Shown here: positions 5,205-42,549 of the stretch, piece after piece | How positions within the stretch are numbered: the stretch's first letter is position 1 | How the letters are laid out: the number at the start of each line of letters is the position of its first letter | DNA from: a phage | DNA length: 64,000 nucleotides | Assembly (NCBI GenBank): GCA_012225525.1 | Contig: GCA_012225525.1_3923.1 | Strand: one strand, 5' to 3' | The notes under the pieces: model-generated | Database searches by the model: none | Told to the model about the DNA's origin: nothing | Seen by the model: the letters and a program-made list of their open reading frames with translations, nothing else | Position numbers and translations under genes: made by a program

Positions 5205-5532
5205 AGCAAAAAAGCTATCTTATGATGATATCATTTCTGGCGCTAAATTAGGTGTTGACAGTCTCGGACAAGACGTTAAACACGGAGACACAGTGATGTA
5301 CTGTGATGACCGAAGAGGAAGAAGTGCAATCTTGTTTGGAAAAGTTGTATGTAAAATACGCGGTAATTATGTTGTTTCAGATATGGATGTCAACGTCGCA
5401 CAAAAGCTCAAAACAATCATGGATAGCAAGATTTCATCATGGCTCTTAAATTGTATGCACGCATCGTCAATCACAAAGGTAAGTGATAAGTTTTACGATA
5501 TGTGGCAGAATGAGCAAATTTTCAAGATTTAA
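5197..5532 (+). CDS. hypothetical protein
   Basis: Track ORF; followed by hairpin terminator. Confidence 0.4.
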   Translation: MFKAKKLSYDDIISGAKLGVDSLGQDVKHGDTVMYCDDRRGRSAILFGKVVCKIRGNYVVSDMDVNVAQKLKTIMDSKISSWLLNCMHASSITKVSDKFYDMWQNEQIFKI

Positions 5533-5538
5533 ACTAGG

Positions 5539-5560
5539 GAGCCTCTTCGGAGGCTCTTTT
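5539..5560 (+). terminator. intrinsic terminator hairpin
   Basis: GAGCCTC-TTCG-GAGGCTC followed by TTTT. Confidence 0.6.
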
Positions 5561-5578
5561 CATCTGTAGGATTTAAAA

Positions 5579-7813
5579 ATGATTAAGACAATTAAAAAAT
5601 CAAACGGTACAGTAGTAAGCTTTGACCCAGAAAGACTGAATAAATGGGCATCATGGGCAGATAAGCGTGGAATTATCTGGTCAGAAGTCACTATGGAAGC
5701 TATGAAACGTGTCTATGAAGGTTGCACCACAAAAGAGATGCACCAAGCCATGATTGATGTTTGTGTTGATAAACAAACTCAAGAGTACTCAGATATGGCT
5801 GGACGACTGCTTTTGGGTATTATCTACAAAGAAGCCTTTGGAGGCTTTACTAAGGTTCCTACGCTGGTTACCTTCGTTAAAAATATGGAGAGAGCAGGAC
5901 TTTGGGAGAAGATGGACTATTCTCAGGAAGAGCTTGAATACCTGCAAGGGTACATTGTGCACTCAAAAGATATCTCTTATGGTTATGCAGTCCTGAAACA
6001 GTTCAGAGACAAGTATGGTATCCGTGATATTAAAACGGGAAGACTTTTTGAGTCACCACAATTTATGTTTATGGGTATGGCTATGAAAGCCTTTGAGAAG
6101 CAACCAAAGCACCGTAGACTACAAGATGTTATCAAGCTGTACACTTACCTATCTGACCTGAAGATTAACGCTCCTACTCCTTACCTGAATGGTTTAAGAG
6201 CCACTAAATCAGGTTATGCGTCATGCTGTTTGATTAAGGCGAATGATACCGCTGAATCTCTCGGTATTGCTGCAAAGGTTGCTTATGATATGACTACAAA
6301 GCAAGCTGGTATCGGGATGCTGATGGAGACTCGCACTATTGGTGATGGTATCCGTCAAAATACTATTGAACACATGGGTAAGCTACCTTATTACAAGCTT
6401 GTACGTTCATCTGTAGAGGCAAACAAACAGAAGAGTCGTGGTGGTTCAGCTAACAACTTCTATACTGCTCTAGACCCGCAGATTGAAGATTTACTGCGTT
6501 TGAAGCACCCTACAACGGTTCCTTCGAAACGTATTAACGAGATGGACTACTCATTTGGTACAAATGATTATTTCTGGCAGTGTGTTCAATATGATACAGA
6601 CTGGTTGCTATTCTCTTACAAGGATGCACCAAAACTCTATGACATGTTCTACACAGCATCTGCTGATGAGTTTGCTATGGCAGTTGGTCACGCAGTCCAT
6701 TCAGGTGTTAAGCACAGACGAGTAAAGGCTCGTGAAATTGCTAAACTGTTTATCCAGCAGCGTTATGCAACAGGCCGTGTGTACCCATTCTTCACGAATA
6801 ATGCAAACACACATACGCCATTTAAAGAACCTTTGAAGATGTCAAATCTTTGTATGGAAATTGTGTTGCCAGTGTACGGCTTTGAGAAAGAGACAGACCT
6901 TTACAGAGATGATGCTGTGAAAGAGGATGGTGAGGTAGCTCTTTGCTTCCTAGCTAGTTTGGTTGCAGGGAGAATTTCAGAAGATGAATACGCTGACGTT
7001 GCTTATTATGCTCTTGCAATGGTTGACTCCGTTATTGACCTTATGGATTATCCGTATCCGTCGATGCGTAACCATGTTCAGAAGCGTCGTTCTGTTGGTA
7101 TTGGCCTTACAAATGTGGCTCATTACCTTGCAAAAAACTACGTGAACTACTCTTCAAGAGCAGGTAAGACGAAGCTTCATGAGCTTGCTGAAATGCACTC
7201 TTACTACTTACACGAAGCTTCTTTAAGACTTGCTAAAGAACGTGGTGTACCTGAGTATATGCAGTTCACTAAGTATCCTGAAGGCTGGGTTCCTCCAAAG
7301 ACAGCTAACAAGAAGATTGATGAGAAGCATGATGCAAAACTTCGTTATGATTGGGATGACTTAGCACAACGTATTAAAGAAAATGGTGGAATCCGTAACT
7401 CTGTATTAGAGGCTTACATGCCTAATGAGAGTTCTTCACTGGCAACTAATACGACAAACGGCTTGTACCCAATTCGTGACTTTATTTTAACTAAAAAGTC
7501 TGCAACTGGTAACGTACTGTTTATTGTTCCAGATTACGAAGAGTTGAAGTATGTCTATGAAATTGCTTGGGATATTGACACCTTTGACCTGATTGATTGT
7601 TATGCAATTGTTCAAAAGTTCACTGGTCAAGCTATCTCTTCAGATTTCTATGTTGACTACGCAAAAGCTAAGAAGGTATCATTGGCTCAAGCTTTGAAGT
7701 ACATGATTTATGCTAACTCAGTAGGTATGAAAACTATGTACTACCTTAACAGTCGCATTGGTGTAGGTAAATCTGCACTGCAAGATGCTTATTGCGAGGG
7801 TTGTGGTGTTTAG
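5579..7813 (+). CDS. nrdA: ribonucleoside-diphosphate reductase large subunit (class I RNR alpha)
   Basis: 744 aa; ATP-cone-like N-terminus; followed by NrdB and redoxin genes. Confidence 0.9.
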   Translation: MIKTIKKSNGTVVSFDPERLNKWASWADKRGIIWSEVTMEAMKRVYEGCTTKEMHQAMIDVCVDKQTQEYSDMAGRLLLGIIYKEAFGGFTKVPTLVTFVKNMERAGLWEKMDYSQEELEYLQGYIVHSKDISYGYAVLKQFRDKYGIRDIKTGRLFESPQFMFMGMAMKAFEKQPKHRRLQDVIKLYTYLSDLKINAPTPYLNGLRATKSGYASCCLIKANDTAESLGIAAKVAYDMTTKQAGIGMLMETRTIGDGIRQNTIEHMGKLPYYKLVRSSVEANKQKSRGGSANNFYTALDPQIEDLLRLKHPTTVPSKRINEMDYSFGTNDYFWQCVQYDTDWLLFSYKDAPKLYDMFYTASADEFAMAVGHAVHSGVKHRRVKAREIAKLFIQQRYATGRVYPFFTNNANTHTPFKEPLKMSNLCMEIVLPVYGFEKETDLYRDDAVKEDGEVALCFLASLVAGRISEDEYADVAYYALAMVDSVIDLMDYPYPSMRNHVQKRRSVGIGLTNVAHYLAKNYVNYSSRAGKTKLHELAEMHSYYLHEASLRLAKERGVPEYMQFTKYPEGWVPPKTANKKIDEKHDAKLRYDWDDLAQRIKENGGIRNSVLEAYMPNESSSLATNTTNGLYPIRDFILTKKSATGNVLFIVPDYEELKYVYEIAWDIDTFDLIDCYAIVQKFTGQAISSDFYVDYAKAKKVSLAQALKYMIYANSVGMKTMYYLNSRIGVGKSALQDAYCEGCGV

Positions 7814-20652: not shown

Positions 20653-21762
20653 ATGACTACTAAAACTAAAGCACAGATTGACGCAGAAATTTACAAACTG
20701 GTTAAAGAAGGTAAGCTGACTAAAACAGCTATTGCACAGAAATTTAATACTTCAACCCGTTCAGTTGGTCGTGCTGTAGAGCGTCATGAAGCAACCTTAA
20801 AAGGGAATAAGAAGGCGACTTCTACACCAGCTACGAAAACTTTGAAGCAAGTTGCTAAGACCTTTAAGAAGAAAGCTGGCAAACCAGTTGAAAAGGCTGT
20901 TAAAGACACTGTACAGAAAGCTCCAGTAAATAAACTGCACGAAGCTATGCAGAAAGATGACAAGATTGAGTACATGATTACTGGTGATTCTGTAATTATG
21001 ACTTATGGTTCAGAATCTGAAATTGTTGAGTCTACTCATCCGAACTATCAAGAGATTGTAGTTCATGTTGTGAAAGGTGAGTTCAAGAAAGCATTTGAAC
21101 TGATGAACATTCGTAAGTCTATCGAAAACTTCACTCAGGGTGCTATCACAATCAAAGGTGACAAGCTATTCTACGGTGCTGTTGAGATGCGTTCTACTCT
21201 GGTTGACCGTATTCTTCACATGATGAAAACTGGCGATAAAGGTTTTGAACGACTTGTAATGTTCTTCGAAAAACTGATGGAAAACCCATCTAAAGATTCT
21301 GTAGAACAACTTTGGGGATTTGTATCTCACCTTGATGTTGAAATTGATGAAGAAGGCTACATCATTGGTTGGAAGAAAGTCTCTACTCGTGAAGGCAAGC
21401 TGGTTGACTCTCACACCTACAAAGTTCCTAATGATTTGGGTAACATTGTAGAAATGCCACGTTGGATGGTTGATAATAACCGTAACGTAACTTGCTCTCA
21501 AGGTCTTCATGTTGGTGCTTGGGATTATGTTCGTTGCTTCTCAGGTGATACAATCCTGAAGGTTCGCGTACATCCACGAGATGTTGTATCTGTTCCAACT
21601 GATTACAACGATATGAAGATGCGTTCCTCTCGTTATGAAGTTGCAGCAATCGTTGATAATCAACGTAAAGTGCTGGAAGCATGGGACGGTAAGACTGAAG
21701 CTTTGCATGTCATCGTTGGCACTGCTGGTGAACTCATCTCTCAACGTAAACGTGAAATCTAA
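20653..21762 (+). CDS. hypothetical protein with N-terminal helix-turn-helix-like segment
   Basis: TKTAIAQKFNTSTRSVGRAVERHE near N-terminus followed by Lys-rich linker. Confidence 0.4.
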   Translation: MTTKTKAQIDAEIYKLVKEGKLTKTAIAQKFNTSTRSVGRAVERHEATLKGNKKATSTPATKTLKQVAKTFKKKAGKPVEKAVKDTVQKAPVNKLHEAMQKDDKIEYMITGDSVIMTYGSESEIVESTHPNYQEIVVHVVKGEFKKAFELMNIRKSIENFTQGAITIKGDKLFYGAVEMRSTLVDRILHMMKTGDKGFERLVMFFEKLMENPSKDSVEQLWGFVSHLDVEIDEEGYIIGWKKVSTREGKLVDSHTYKVPNDLGNIVEMPRWMVDNNRNVTCSQGLHVGAWDYVRCFSGDTILKVRVHPRDVVSVPTDYNDMKMRSSRYEVAAIVDNQRKVLEAWDGKTEALHVIVGTAGELISQRKREI

Positions 21763-21778: not shown

Positions 21779-21801
21779 AGGCTGCTTCGGCGGCCTTTTT
21801 T
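21779..21801 (+). terminator. intrinsic terminator hairpin
   Basis: AAGGCTGC-TTCG-GCGGCCTT followed by TTTTTT. Confidence 0.6.
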
Positions 21802-21862
21802 ATTTGTATTTTGTGCAGAGTGCTGTATAATTGTTGTCACGATAAACTAAACAGGAGAACCA

Positions 21863-25113: not shown

Positions 25114-25899
25114 ATGGGTATTGTAAAAATAATCAATGGTGATATCTTTGCCGCATTTGATAAAGGTAAGTTTGACATCATCGGTCACGGTTGCAACTGT
25201 ATGAATTTAATGGGTGCAGGTATCGCTGACAAGATTTCTAAACTTTACCCAAAAGCATATGAGACCGATACAGAAGTTTATCTATATGCAGGTGGTATAG
25301 GACACAAACCCTGTGAAAATTTACTGGGTAATTTCTCTGTAGCACGTTTAAAACAAGGTCGTATAGCTAACCTTTACACTCAGCTTAAGACTGGTAAAGA
25401 TGCCCGATACAGTGCTTTAGAGTCATCTTTGAAACAGCTTAACAGATACTGTGAAGTTAATCAGTTGAAGAAAGTTGGTTTACCTATGATTGGTGCAGGT
25501 ATTGGTGGGCTGGACCCTCAAGCTGTCATAGTTATCATCAATCAGGTGATGAAGAGTGTAGATGTTTATCTGTATGTCTATGAAGGAGAGATGTACCACA
25601 AGTTACGCTCAGGTTGGAAGAACTACTGTGAACCAGAATACTTTGCAGGTGTAGCAGTGTTCACAGATAACGCAGTTACCCTCTTCAGACGAAGAAAAGG
25701 TAAGATACATCAAAGTAACCCTCCGGTTGAAAAGATGTCTCTGAGTAACGCTCTAGTTACCCACCTGTCGAAGAGCAATCACAGGATTGCAGTAACATTT
25801 GGCAGTGATGCAGATACTTATATCTATGCAAGAACTGATGAGGATATCGAGACAGTTTTCTCTTCACCAGAAGTTACCTTCTTAGACGCAAAGAACTAA
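25114..25899 (+). CDS. macro-domain-like protein (ADP-ribose binding/processing)
   Basis: INGDIF...FDIIGHGCNCMNLMGAGIADKI and GLPMIGAGIGGLDP resemble macro domain N-terminal and Gly-rich motifs. Confidence 0.5.
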   Translation: MGIVKIINGDIFAAFDKGKFDIIGHGCNCMNLMGAGIADKISKLYPKAYETDTEVYLYAGGIGHKPCENLLGNFSVARLKQGRIANLYTQLKTGKDARYSALESSLKQLNRYCEVNQLKKVGLPMIGAGIGGLDPQAVIVIINQVMKSVDVYLYVYEGEMYHKLRSGWKNYCEPEYFAGVAVFTDNAVTLFRRRKGKIHQSNPPVEKMSLSNALVTHLSKSNHRIAVTFGSDADTYIYARTDEDIETVFSSPEVTFLDAKN

Positions 25900-25967
25900 G
25901 AAACTCTGTAGAATATTCACAATAGACTAAGCCTTTCTTATCTGGTAAATTTTTCAGGTAAGGAGGG

Positions 25968-26153
25968 CTTTTTCATTTCAGGATTGTGCAGGTAGAGTTC
26001 TGTAGAGAAATCTGTAGAGAGAATTTTGAACTCCAAAGAGAAAATTCATTTTCAAACTGTGCAGGTAATCTCCAAAGAGCTTTTTCATTTTCAAAACGTG
26101 CAGACCCCGCTCAGGTCGGGCAAGAAAAATCATTTTAGAATTGTGCAGGTAGG
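25968..26153 (+). repeat. four imperfect direct repeats of about 26 bp (TTTCATTTTCAAA-TGTGCAGGTA)
   Basis: Copies at about 25968, 26040, 26078, 26125; also duplicated TCTGTAGAGA and CTCCAAAGAG. Confidence 0.7.
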
Positions 26154-26154
26154 T

Positions 26155-26205
26155 TTTTATAGAGAGCCAGACCAACCCCTCTCCCCCTCTTACTCCCCCT
26201 CTCCC
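26155..26205 (+). repeat. polypyrimidine C-rich tract
   Basis: CCAGACCAACCCCTCTCCCCCTCTTACTCCCCCTCTCCCC. Confidence 0.6.
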
Positions 26206-26327
26206 CAAAAGTCAAGAGAAAAATTTGTAGTGGATTGAAAAATAATTCTTGATTTGTGTTCTGTTTTGTGGTAGTCGCGTGCGCCCGTTTCATTACAGTT
26301 TTGCTAAAAATATTTTTAAAAATTTTC

Positions 26328-26356
26328 TTGACTCTTTGAACGGGGTTATCTAATAT
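26328..26356 (+). promoter_or_regulatory. sigma70-like promoter
   Basis: TTGACT-17 bp-TAATAT upstream of first small gene. Confidence 0.55.
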
Positions 26357-26408
26357 TTGCATCAGACGGGGCGACAAGCTCAACAACCTTAAACTAGGAG
26401 ATTCAAAA

Positions 26409-26789
26409 ATGGCATATCGTGCACCTAAATTCATCAACAAAGACAACTTTCGCAACGCACTGGAGAAGTCACTTGATGAAAATTTTAAAGGTAACATTAT
26501 CGTTGTTCACGCATTCAATTTTAAGTATGATGTAAACGGGAATAGAATCAACCATTACACGGCAACCATGTCAGATGGTACACTTTCAAGTGAAAAAGCC
26601 GTACTAAATGCACTGGCAGGACGTGGAAAGGTATTAGTAAGATGTGATAAGAGACGTTATCAGGGCGGCGCATATGGTTATGATGATGCTGTTTACCATC
26701 TTGAAAATATGGGCTATCAAGTAGAAAAAGCTGGAGCATCACAAATCATCGGCAGCGATGGTTATGTAACAATCTTCAAAATTAACTGA
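26409..26789 (+). CDS. small hypothetical protein (array gene 1)
   Basis: Preceded by TTAAACTAGGAGATTCAAAAATG leader. Confidence 0.5.
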   Translation: MAYRAPKFINKDNFRNALEKSLDENFKGNIIVVHAFNFKYDVNGNRINHYTATMSDGTLSSEKAVLNALAGRGKVLVRCDKRRYQGGAYGYDDAVYHLENMGYQVEKAGASQIIGSDGYVTIFKIN

Positions 26790-27879: not shown

Positions 27880-27969
27880 CACTGGTTTTTAGATAGATTA
27901 AATTACACATCAACGGGGAGGGAATGACCTTCCCCACTAAATAAAGTCCTTAAACTAGGAGATTCTAAA
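27876..27969 (+). repeat. cassette type A copy 1 (promoter TTGACA-17-TAAATT, hairpin 27915..27935, RBS)
   Basis: TTGACACTGGTTTTTAGATAGATTAAATT...GGGGAGGGAATGACCTTCCCC...TTAAACTAGGAGATTCTAAAATG. Confidence 0.75.
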
Positions 27970-32199: not shown

Positions 32200-33700
32200 T
32201 CTATAAAGAGACTCTATACAATCCCTTTCCTTTCCTTCCTAGAATCTATCCCGTACCTTAAAAGCAATAACTCTATAGGTTATTCTATAGCCCCTTATCA
32301 AATCAACTTAAATAAAAGCCAATAACCCCAGAAAGGGGATGGCCCATTAAAACGCTCTATAAAGCTCTATAACAGCCTTATCAACCTAACTTAAGCAATC
32401 ATATTAACCCACTCTAAAAAGCCCTTTATAGAGCTTCCCAGAGCCTTAAAAGAATCTTATAAGGGTGTAAGTTTATAGGCTGGCTAGTATCTTGTGAATA
32501 ACTAAACAATCCCCTTGATAGTCACTAAAAAGCATGTTATAGGGGGTATAAAGTTACTTCAAAGTAACGTAAAAAAGGCTATAAAGTTACGTAAATGCTA
32601 GCCCCCTTAACATTTTCTTAACAATTTCTTAACAATCCCTACATAGTTATGCTTGTTAGCCCCTTGTTAAATCTCTGTTAAGACCACGTAAAAGCCTTGT
32701 AAGAGTCTTTGACATAGCCTTAAAAGCTCCTGTAAAGCCCTATAAAGAGGTGTCTGTATAGTTGGGGTGTAATTACTAGGAAGAGACTTAAAAGAGCTTA
32801 CAAGGAGCTATAGAGAGCTTTTAAGAGGTATGTTTAAGAGTTCACTAAGAAAGGAAGGGAACGATAAGAAAAGAGATAGTGACCATGTTAATAGCTTGTT
32901 AAAAAGATTAAACACTTGTTAGGAACTTGTTAATTATCTTAATTGGTATTGTTACCAATCCCTACAAAATAACTCTTTAAAATTAACTTGTTAGCTCTTG
33001 TTAGTCATCTGTTAAGCCTCTGTAAAGACTATTCAGCACTTGTTAGAAAACTGTTAAGCCCTTGTTAGTTCTGTTAAGAAACTGTTAAGACCTTTGAAGA
33101 GATGTTAAGAGCTTGAGAGAGTTGTTAAGAGATTGTTAAGGATATTTTAAAATTTTGCAAAGTACTTGTAAGGGAGCTGTTAAGGGCTACCAAGCAGATA
33201 TACATCTTCTACAGATATTTTTCAGTCCCTTCAAAGACCCTAAAAAATGACTTGATAGTCCTATTTTATAAAAATTTTAAAATTCTGAATAATTACCTAG
33301 ACAGTCTTTTAAAAATACAGGTAGAAACAGGCTTATAAGATACCTTGTTAGTACCGTGTTAGACCTTGTGAGATAAGGTCTGTAAAGATATTCCTGTTAA
33401 GTTTGTTAAAACAGTCTATATAGAGGCTTAGTAGTGCCTAGTGAACACCTATAGAGGGTAACATAGCTAACCTAGAGATTAAGAGGTGTATAGGAGCTTC
33501 TAAGAGGGTGTAGAGAGATGGTTAAGGTGATTGTATAGGTTGTTAAGAAGGCTTGTTAGAAGAGTGTTTAGAAGGGCTATACAGAGGGGCTATTAAGACC
33601 ACTAGATAGATACTAAGATACTATATAGTACTATATAACTATATAGAGAGTAAGATTAAGAAGGTTGTTAAGAAGGGTAGATATTTTATTCACATATGAT
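32200..33700. repeat. ORF-free, motif-dense non-coding region (about 1.5 kb)
   Basis: No ORF of 60 aa or more on either strand; dozens of short motifs (CTTGTTAG, CTGTTAAG, TTGTTAAGA, CTATAAAG, TTAAAAG, TATAGAG). Confidence 0.8.
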
Positions 33701-42177: not shown

Positions 42178-42549
42178 ATGAAAAACAGAACAAACAAAGG
42201 CCAGTTTAAAAAAGGCCAGTCTGGAAACCCATCTGGAAGACCAAAAGGCTCTCGTAACAAAAGCTCACTTGTAAAAGCTCAACTGACCATTGATAATTCT
42301 GCTGAGTTTGCTGCAAAGTTGTTTGAGGCGATTGTTACAAGGGACGCGGCTAAGCTTGCAGAGTTTGGGTTAAACACAGACGACGTAACCATCAAGAGCA
42401 TGATTGAGGTCGGTAAAACTATCATGACCCACTCAGCAGGTGAGATGAAAGCAATTGCAGCAGATACTAAGAAGACTCCTGATAATGGTGGTCAGTCTCA
42501 GACAGATAACAAACCAACGTTCTCTGCTGTTGCAACCCTTAAAAAATAA
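42178..42549 (+). CDS. hypothetical protein with N-terminal GNPSGRPKG motif (possible nucleic-acid binding)
   Basis: KGQSGNPSGRPKGSRNK near N-terminus. Confidence 0.4.
   Translation: MKNRTNKGQFKKGQSGNPSGRPKGSRNKSSLVKAQLTIDNSAEFAAKLFEAIVTRDAAKLAEFGLNTDDVTIKSMIEVGKTIMTHSAGEMKAIAADTKKTPDNGGQSQTDNKPTFSAVATLKK

Follow-up and report, generated by a model that had tools for sequence, protein, structure and literature searches.

A conserved iteron-like repeat array, probably a protein-binding element, in Felix O1-like phages

Arrays of direct repeats at a single locus, in large and conserved intergenic regions of virulent phages, are classically replication origins, as in lambda, T4 oriE and the dairy phages. 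The origin of lambda has four 19-bp O-binding repeats beside an AT-rich region, and other iteron systems include the Rep iterons of P1, F and pSC101 and the iteron cluster of T4 oriE with its RepEB protein. Dairy phage origins (those of lactococcal sk1/c2 and the Sfi21-type 'Per' origin of Streptococcus thermophilus) are found in the replication module or next to it, and plasmid interference has demonstrated their function. T7-type replisomes use transcripts made by RNA polymerase to start at an origin that contains a promoter and is close to one end of the genome; the primary origin of T7, about 15% from one end, consists of promoters followed by an AT-rich region and is primed by RNA polymerase. 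Here we describe a direct-repeat array in a 64,000-nucleotide stretch of phage DNA (contig GCA_012225525.1_3923.1 of GenBank assembly GCA_012225525.1; hereafter the window), which comes from a Felix O1-like myovirus of the genus Felixounavirus with a whole genome of about 87-88 kb. The array lies in the 509-bp gap that separates gp12 (25114-25899, plus strand), a macro-domain phosphatase gene, from the first gene of a long plus-strand run of small genes (26409 onward). We suggest that it is an iteron-like protein-binding repeat array, a kind of element already known, of which this instance appears not to have been described before. Our literature search found no replication origin described for the Ounavirinae, nor this array; the Felix O1 paper lists other direct repeats (Whichard et al. 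2010).

The array comprises four copies of an asymmetric 27-nt unit, all on the plus strand, at 25968-25994 (copy 1, CTTTTTCATTTCAGGATTGTGCAGGTA), 26041-26067 (copy 2, AAAATTCATTTTCAAACTGTGCAGGTA), 26080-26106 (copy 3, CTTTTTCATTTTCAAAACGTGCAGACC) and 26125-26151 (copy 4, AAAAATCATTTTAGAATTGTGCAGGTA), and spans 184 bp. Copies 2 and 3 are each directly preceded by CTCCAAAGAG (26031-26040 and 26070-26079), copy 4 with its 3' flank forms a 36-nt repeat shared with copy 1, and the long, moderately conserved spacer between copies 1 and 2 holds two copies of TCTGTAGAGA (25999-26008 and 26011-26020). A 27-nt weight matrix of 30 bits, built without the window from the copies of other phages, scored copies 1 to 4 at 36.9, 36.2, 33.9 and 33.3 bits, respectively. 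The next best site in the window reached 15.1 bits, the maximum of 20 shuffled windows was 14.2 bits, and no site above 4.7 bits was found in the 24.5 kb of genome beyond the window, taken from wV8. The distance between the 33-37 bits of the four copies and every other score therefore shows that the array is real and that it occurs at one locus per genome. A general promoter or operator motif was rejected because there are no further copies in the genome, and no sequence similarity of the array to any plasmid, and thus to plasmid iterons, was seen. The elements that the first-pass annotation had listed here (the four repeats, the paired TCTGTAGAGA and CTCCAAAGAG, a C-rich tract, GTCGCGTGCGCCCG and the promoter TTGACT-17-TAATAT) are all present where it placed them. 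Its description of the repeats as regularly spaced did not survive measurement: start-to-start distances are 73, 39 and 45 bp in the window, 75/41/45 in Mooglevirus and 37/37/39 in Kolesnikvirus. The 9-mer GTGCAGGTA, the 3' end of the repeat unit, occurs five times in the window against 0.34 expected, and two of these occurrences are within the phosphatase gene at 25214 and 25493; no flanking likeness to the repeat unit was seen at either of the two, as nothing scored there in the weight-matrix scan.

Relatives were collected in two ways, by a two-copy pattern scan of IMG/VR and by anchoring on the phosphatase gene. Every Ounavirinae genome examined carries, 3' of the macro-domain phosphatase gene, three to five same-orientation copies with the shared core TTTTCATTT-N7-GTGCA, and the lineages with the array are Felixounavirus, Mooglevirus, Kolesnikvirus and one divergent lineage represented by contig L038. 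Absence of the repeats from related phages had been named beforehand as the result that would speak against a functional element; anchoring on the phosphatase gene instead found the array, at the same offset, in 29 of 29 Ounavirinae loci. A gp12 orthologue stands immediately 5' of the array each time, with synteny in wV8, Mordin, M7 and L038. In Citrobacter phage Mordin (Mooglevirus) and Erwinia phage M7 (Kolesnikvirus), four copies in one orientation follow directly after the phosphatase orthologue at the spacings given above, and alignment of the Erwinia phages with the window is confined to the repeats. Copy number is four in most genomes, three in the EcoM2/phiWec174 sub-lineage, where copy 2 is absent, and at least four to five in L038; copy 1 has an orthologous copy in all lineages. 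The pattern scan of IMG/VR yielded 43 loci, and the contigs of Ounavirinae type among them, of about 85-90 kb, bear the array. A distribution beyond the Ounavirinae was rejected, as the other IMG/VR matches are in-frame coding repeats of fibre-like genes (...SFANGA..., from translation by eye with no protein search). A functional tie to the macro-domain gene was rejected as well, since 15 distant phages with a macro-domain homologue have neither the motif nor an analogous array.

Two of the IMG/VR contigs deserve a separate description. In L038 (IMGVR_UViG_3300045988_063805), the reverse complement of 5356-5790 holds at least four to five copies of GGAAACGATrCAAAATTCATTTTAAAAACGTGCATAGG, and directly 3' of the array there are about ten same-orientation TTAACA repeats, which resemble those seen in the terminal repeat of Felixounavirus; the contig stops 770 nt after them. 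In L077/L042 (IMGVR_UViG_3300045988_004180; L077 2507-2698), the array stops after copy 3 and is followed by E. coli mukE/mukB DNA with 100% identity through to the contig end, so that either the assembly is chimeric here or phage and host DNA are truly joined.

The array is under strong purifying selection, and its position and orientation have been kept across the subfamily. Among 13 genomes, core positions are 0.992 identical pairwise and inter-repeat spacers 0.935, while the adjacent gene in the same genomes stands at 0.977, 0.985 and 0.872 for its first, second and third codon positions; the cores are thus 99.2% identical as against 87.2% for the synonymous sites of the neighbouring gene. 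Taken segment by segment, pairwise identity ranges from 0.94 to 0.99 in the cores and from 0.76 to 0.94 in the inter-repeat spacers. The 3' half of the unit is common to all copies of a genome and specific to the lineage, being GTGCAGGT in Felixounavirus and Mooglevirus and GTGCATAG in Kolesnikvirus and L038. The copies have therefore changed in concert, a pattern better explained by a phage protein that co-evolves with them than by a host factor. A single locus, one orientation, conserved cores between diverging spacers and concerted change of the copies bear out the earlier suggestion that the repeats are binding sites, and we consider it very probable, from these patterns, that the array is a protein-binding cis element of some kind. 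The published PhageMaP essentiality library (Bas63) covered genes only and is uninformative on the gap.

Which function such binding would serve is a more tentative matter. We infer that a protein binds the array, that this protein is phage-encoded and that its function is replication initiation; that the repeats are the iterons of a replication origin is the likeliest of the roles considered, though we give it somewhat less than even weight. The array resembles iteron origins in grouping several direct repeats, asymmetric, about 20 bp long and all pointing the same way, at one locus (at least three repeats of about 17-27 bp; three to five copies in relatives), in the lineage-specific co-variation of these copies, and in having A/T-rich DNA and promoters nearby. 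Like the dairy phage origins, it consists of intergenic direct repeats in a virulent phage that are more conserved than the flanking genes; unlike them, it lies more than 20 kb from the replication genes. The likeness to T7 concerns the replication proteins and the polarity of the locus. The phage encodes a primase-helicase of the T7 gp4 type (Toprim plus DnaB_C), not the origin-recognising P4/D5 type, together with a family-A DNA polymerase, and a promoter or promoter-like element about 8% from one genome end is aimed into the bulk of the genome. T7, in contrast, relies on a phage-encoded RNA polymerase and lacks an iteron array, and the -10 of the corresponding leftward element in Felixounavirus is weak.

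The gap is bounded and subdivided by several further elements. On the left, a rho-independent terminator of the phosphatase operon (25929-25970, plus strand) has a 17-pair stem followed by a T-run, and its T-tract overlaps the start of copy 1; it is also annotated in wV8 and KhF2. On the right, the promoter of the first small gene (26296-26356, plus strand) has an A/T-rich upstream stretch, a -35 TTGACT (26328-26333), a 17-nt spacer and a -10 TAATAT (26351-26356). This promoter is near consensus, its TTGAC is invariant in relatives, and it has counterparts in M7 and Mordin. A leftward promoter-like element faces the array at 26187-26215 on the minus strand, with a -35 TTGACT (26215-26210), a 17-nt spacer and a weak -10 TAAGAG (26192-26187), and copy 4 sits about 30-55 nt downstream of it. 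The -35 and the 17-nt spacing are kept in Mooglevirus and in both sequence variants of this stretch, the -10 reading TAGCCT in the other variant. M7 has a leftward promoter, TTGACG-18-TATACT (10/12), back-to-back with the main rightward promoter and directed at the array. Because M7 offers this good counterpart, and because the -35 and spacing are kept in Felixounavirus and Mooglevirus, a leftward promoter toward the array looks like a shared architecture, strong in Kolesnikvirus and weak in Felixounavirus.

On the origin reading, one sequence-specific and probably phage-encoded protein would bind all copies and form a nucleoprotein complex. Flanked by the phosphatase operon's terminator on one side and by the small-gene promoter on the other, the array would be free of rightward transcription. 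The bound protein and a leftward promoter for host RNA polymerase would together mark the start site for a T7-type replisome, composed of the gp4-like primase-helicase and the family-A polymerase. The leftward promoter, about 8% from the right end, would point through the array toward the other 92% or so, and the leading strand would head leftward into the bulk (about 80 kb) of the linear genome. By analogy with T7, we suggest that the leftward transcript could act as the replication primer.

Several observations weigh against an origin. The spacing of the copies is wide and irregular, 37-75 bp, unlike the 21-23 bp or so of classical iterons, and no consistent helical phasing is seen across the lineages compared. 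The least stable 40-bp stretch, from 26288, ranks in the top 0.2% of the window, but over 100 bp the region is ordinary (19th percentile), and this AT-rich stretch doubles as the upstream element of the early promoter. The leftward element falls under the promoter-scan threshold in the window, with its weak -10. The replication genes are, as noted, remote, and no Rep, O, DnaA-like or winged-helix initiator was found beside the array or among about 30 scanned proteins; an unrecognised initiator could hide among the many hypothetical proteins. The direct neighbours of the array are the macro-domain phosphatase and a phrog_4495 protein, neither of them an initiator gene. The iteron idea of the first-pass annotation thus stands as far as direct repeats, copy number and a unique locus are concerned, and falls short in spacing, in the lack of an adjacent initiator gene and in AT content at 100 bp.

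A further point against an origin is a possible weak fifth site, CTTTTTTATTTGTATTTTGTGCAGAGT (21795-21831, plus strand), directly after the rIIB terminator, which we regard as a lead only. Its first part, 21795-21821, reads T-run/ATTT-N7-GTGCAG and covers -38 to -15 of a promoter whose TATAAT (21826-21831) is perfect and whose -35 is poor; this promoter drives the operon that ends at the terminator beside the array. Across Felixounavirus and Mooglevirus the core of the site is kept and the N7 is variable. Its weight-matrix score of 13.5 bits is not above that of the best shuffle. A weak site that overlaps a promoter would fit a transcription factor equally well, and it may slightly favour that reading.

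The main rival to an origin is accordingly a cluster of sites for a phage transcription factor, serving as high-affinity operators or as a reservoir at an early-to-middle switch, which we hold to be somewhat less likely than an origin. Such a factor would act on the flanking promoters, including the leftward element, and on the post-rIIB promoter, where the weak copy takes the place of a -35 as in PhoB- or MotA-type activation, or acts by simple occlusion. The same T-run/ATTT-N7-GTGCAG geometry over that TATAAT promoter, the terminator on one side of the array with promoters on the other, the tolerated variation between three and five copies and the presence of a phage-encoded XRE-type helix-turn-helix (HTH) regulator all agree with this reading. 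The strong sites, however, lie 177-360 bp upstream of the main promoter, with none at the promoter itself, so that the repeats are poorly positioned to be operators of TTGACT-17-TAATAT; a promoter so near consensus needs no activator, and the other promoters of the small-gene run are also without a copy. The post-rIIB site, as said, does no better than the best shuffle, and the XRE protein has no detectable homologue in the Erwinia phages that bear the array. XRE dimers, moreover, normally bind palindromes rather than asymmetric direct repeats. Of the two roles offered in the first-pass annotation, iterons or regulator sites, what stands is that the repeats behave as selected, cis-acting protein-binding sites; sequence does not separate origin from regulator. 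A more distant proposal, and an improbable one, is that a phage with a contractile tail delivers its genome in T5-like steps and that the array is the signal that stops delivery or marks the boundary. On this view the terminal 8% or so, with small early genes and strong host-type promoters, would enter or be expressed first, and a host or phage protein on the array would pause transfer, or insulate the other 92%, until early proteins had acted. The geometry is suggestive: the terminal repeat begins 6.45 kb and finishes 7.04 kb away from the array, which amounts to about 8% of a genome of about 87 kb, and M7 shares this layout with different small genes. The stop signal of T5 is also a conserved non-coding repeat region, bounding a first-transfer segment of 7.9% (10.1101/866236). 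In Kolesnikvirus and L038 the units end in TGTGCATAG or CGTGGATAG, one to two mismatches from the reverse-complemented relaxed DnaA-box consensus; the putative DnaA-box half in the window matches at 6 of 9 positions only. The T5 injection stop region, of 1.2-1.7 kb, is rich in inverted repeats and palindromes, has paired DnaA boxes and lies within a 10-kb terminal repeat (Davison, bioRxiv 10.1101/866236). Our array is like it in consisting of conserved non-coding repeats, in sitting where a terminal block of small early genes meets the rest of the genome, and in being conserved above the adjacent gene, but it is a simple direct-repeat array outside a terminal repeat of 0.6 kb that is 6.4 kb off, its units in the window match the DnaA-box consensus only in part, and no large inverted repeats were seen. 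Two-step transfer has, in addition, not been reported for Felix O1-like myoviruses, and L038 has a different repeat run straight after the array.

Three other explanations can be set against the same locus, and all of them have little to recommend them. That the repeats are packaging or terminus-associated repeats at a physical genome end is highly improbable, even though the GenBank records of KhF1, TH10 and EC106 begin or finish inside the gap, because the terminal repeat maps elsewhere: the annotated 581-bp direct terminal repeat of Pr103Blw corresponds to 32601-33191 of the window, 6.45 kb downstream of copy 4. The end overlap of TH10 is a 74-bp assembly overlap. Both record ends of KhF1 (KT184313.1; L008 1-377 and L009 2128-2500) cover 25957-26329 of the window with a mutual identity of only 89.7%, more in keeping with an assembly that is mixed or wrongly joined than with a terminal repeat. 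A tandemly assembled terminal repeat in KhF2 and KhF3 was also considered and rejected, the extra DNA of about 455 bp being an additional small gene with no duplicated terminal repeat. The reading of the gap as a genome terminus or packaging site was thus discarded, and the records that open within it reflect choices of assembly or permutation. It is just as hard to believe that the repeats lie inside a small protein gene, such as 'ORF13' of wV8 on the plus strand or the minus-strand open reading frames (ORFs) of 60-100 amino acids in Mordin and SB18. Several records do annotate ORFs there, and minus-strand copies at multiples of 3 share a frame that reads ...LHxxKMxF.... Yet variation in the gap lacks codon periodicity (minus strand, 0.195/0.223/0.202; plus strand, 0.130/0.152/0.161; real neighbouring gene, 0.023/0.015/0.128), and indels of -2, -4, -10 and -37 nt among relatives break the frame. 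No ORF is common to the genera, start codons are inconsistent and the copies are in differing frames. GenBank records differ on the gap, some showing nothing there and others placing inconsistent small ORFs in it, and the small ORFs annotated across it in many of them are spurious. An action of the repeats as RNA, either as a repeated protein-binding motif or as a small RNA in a read-through or leftward transcript, seems improbable as well. The leftward promoter of M7 faces the array and makes antisense transcription possible, but the only significant structure is the terminator (folding z-scores of -1.9, from the terminator only, and +1.4 on the two strands), no Rfam family was matched, and a strong terminator precedes the array on the plus strand.

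The search for a cognate protein gave one recognisable candidate, which fits poorly. Domain scans of about 30 neighbouring and unannotated proteins left the XRE protein as the sole DNA-binding candidate. A fully annotated relative encodes no other recognisable protein that binds DNA sequence-specifically besides this HTH protein of 99 amino acids, which is homologous to wV8 gp092. Its homologues occur in 261 records and in none of the array-bearing Erwinia phages, and for this reason the case for it as the binder is weakened. The two binders put forward by the first-pass annotation have no credible DNA-binding assignment for such a role: the product of 20653-21762 is rIIB, and that of 42178-42549 is a DUF5681 protein. 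The latter has 123 amino acids and is encoded first in the plus-strand operon for packaging and morphogenesis, some 9 kb away from the terminal repeat; by position it is a candidate small terminase. Among host proteins, DnaA, IHF, Fis, Fur and PhoB did not fit the conserved positions, as judged by eye against their consensus sequences with no test by a dedicated tool.

Three further segments of unequal conservation separate the repeats from the first small gene's promoter. The C-rich polypyrimidine tract (26176-26206) is the most C-rich 31-mer of the window, with 22 C against 14 at the 99.9th percentile, and its complementary strand is the sole (G3+N1-7)x4 motif, a G-quadruplex motif, in the 64 kb. 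The first-pass annotation had listed the tract together with the repeats, but it is accessory and specific to a lineage, and lies in the least conserved segment of the gap (0.58-0.66). In 11 of 23 aligned loci, unrelated DNA that is not C-rich takes its place at equal length, giving two 55-nt alleles at 26152-26206, one C-rich and capable of forming a G-quadruplex and the other GGTGGGTGCAGGTGGGGATGTCGCC..., with 21 of 55 positions identical; substitution thus affects about half of the Felixounavirus loci. The Kolesnikvirus counterpart is CCCACCCTCCC only. A regulatory tract acting as G-quadruplex or H-DNA found no support, the motif not being conserved among the 23 aligned loci and in Kolesnikvirus, and an origin model that rests on an R-loop or G-quadruplex at the C-tract was dropped because the tract is not conserved. 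In spite of the swap, the homologue of 25981-26208 is 228 nt long in 17 of the 23 loci, and this constant length suggests that the distance from the repeats to the element that follows is constrained.

The element that follows is a second near-invariant non-coding block of 46 bp, AAAAGTCAAGAGAAAAATTTGTAGTGGATTGAAAAATAATTCTTGA (26207-26252; identity 0.95-0.98), at a fixed distance from the repeats. It is unique in the window, is present in Felixounavirus and Mooglevirus and absent from Kolesnikvirus, and it holds the minus-strand TTGACT of the leftward element as well as a plus-strand TTGATT with the same 17-nt geometry. The distribution of the XRE regulator tracks this block and not the array, and because the two share one phylogenetic distribution the block may be the operator of that regulator. 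The GC-rich segment GTCGCGTGCGCCCG (26274-26287) is moderately conserved, with an identity of 0.79-0.92 over 26253-26295.

In the region of the gap, the window is closest to Salmonella phage FSL SP-010 (99% identity) and next to the coliphages wV8 and LMP33 (about 95%). The gap is the second largest non-coding stretch of the window, behind the terminal-repeat region. Its left neighbour, gp12, matches Pfam Macro at 1.4e-7 and the phosphatase family phrog_335 at 2e-113, and its right neighbour, the first gene of the small-gene run (26409-26789, plus strand), belongs to phrog_4495, which has no function assigned. This gene is preceded by a translation-initiation cassette, CCTTAAACTAGGAGATTCAAAA (26387-26408, plus strand), which recurs seven times in the run: identical cassettes of 18-22 nt stand at 27948, 28811, 29102, 30035, 30935 and 31532 as well, 5' of seven genes of the run. 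Gene swaps or divergence among relatives set in just past position 26371 or so, and since they begin there the CCTTAAACTAGGAGATTCAAAA cassettes may be recombination linkers in gene shuffling. Farther to the right, the terminal repeat (32601-33191, about 0.6 kb) is dense in short CTTGTTAG and CTGTTAAG repeats, roughly two dozen by eye, and begins with three CTTAACA copies in the opposite orientation. M7 terminates in a similar non-coding region of about 1 kb with CTTCTAA and TGTTAAG repeats, and the short repeats in terminal repeats probably have to do with packaging or with the genome ends.

Felix O1-like phages find wide use in typing, biocontrol and therapy of Salmonella and E. coli, and Bas63 is becoming a genetic model. 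Whichard et al. (2010) gave the temporal control of transcription in these phages as unknown, and no later work on it or on their replication origin was found. Of the non-coding elements that we saw close to the early region the array is the most constrained, and each genome has just one. Its 184 bp provide a precise target for origin mapping and for pull-down of the cognate protein, and engineering projects that insert payloads into the gap should keep them clear of it. Whichever function it serves, the array gives a testable handle on where Felix O1-like phages start replication or switch transcription.

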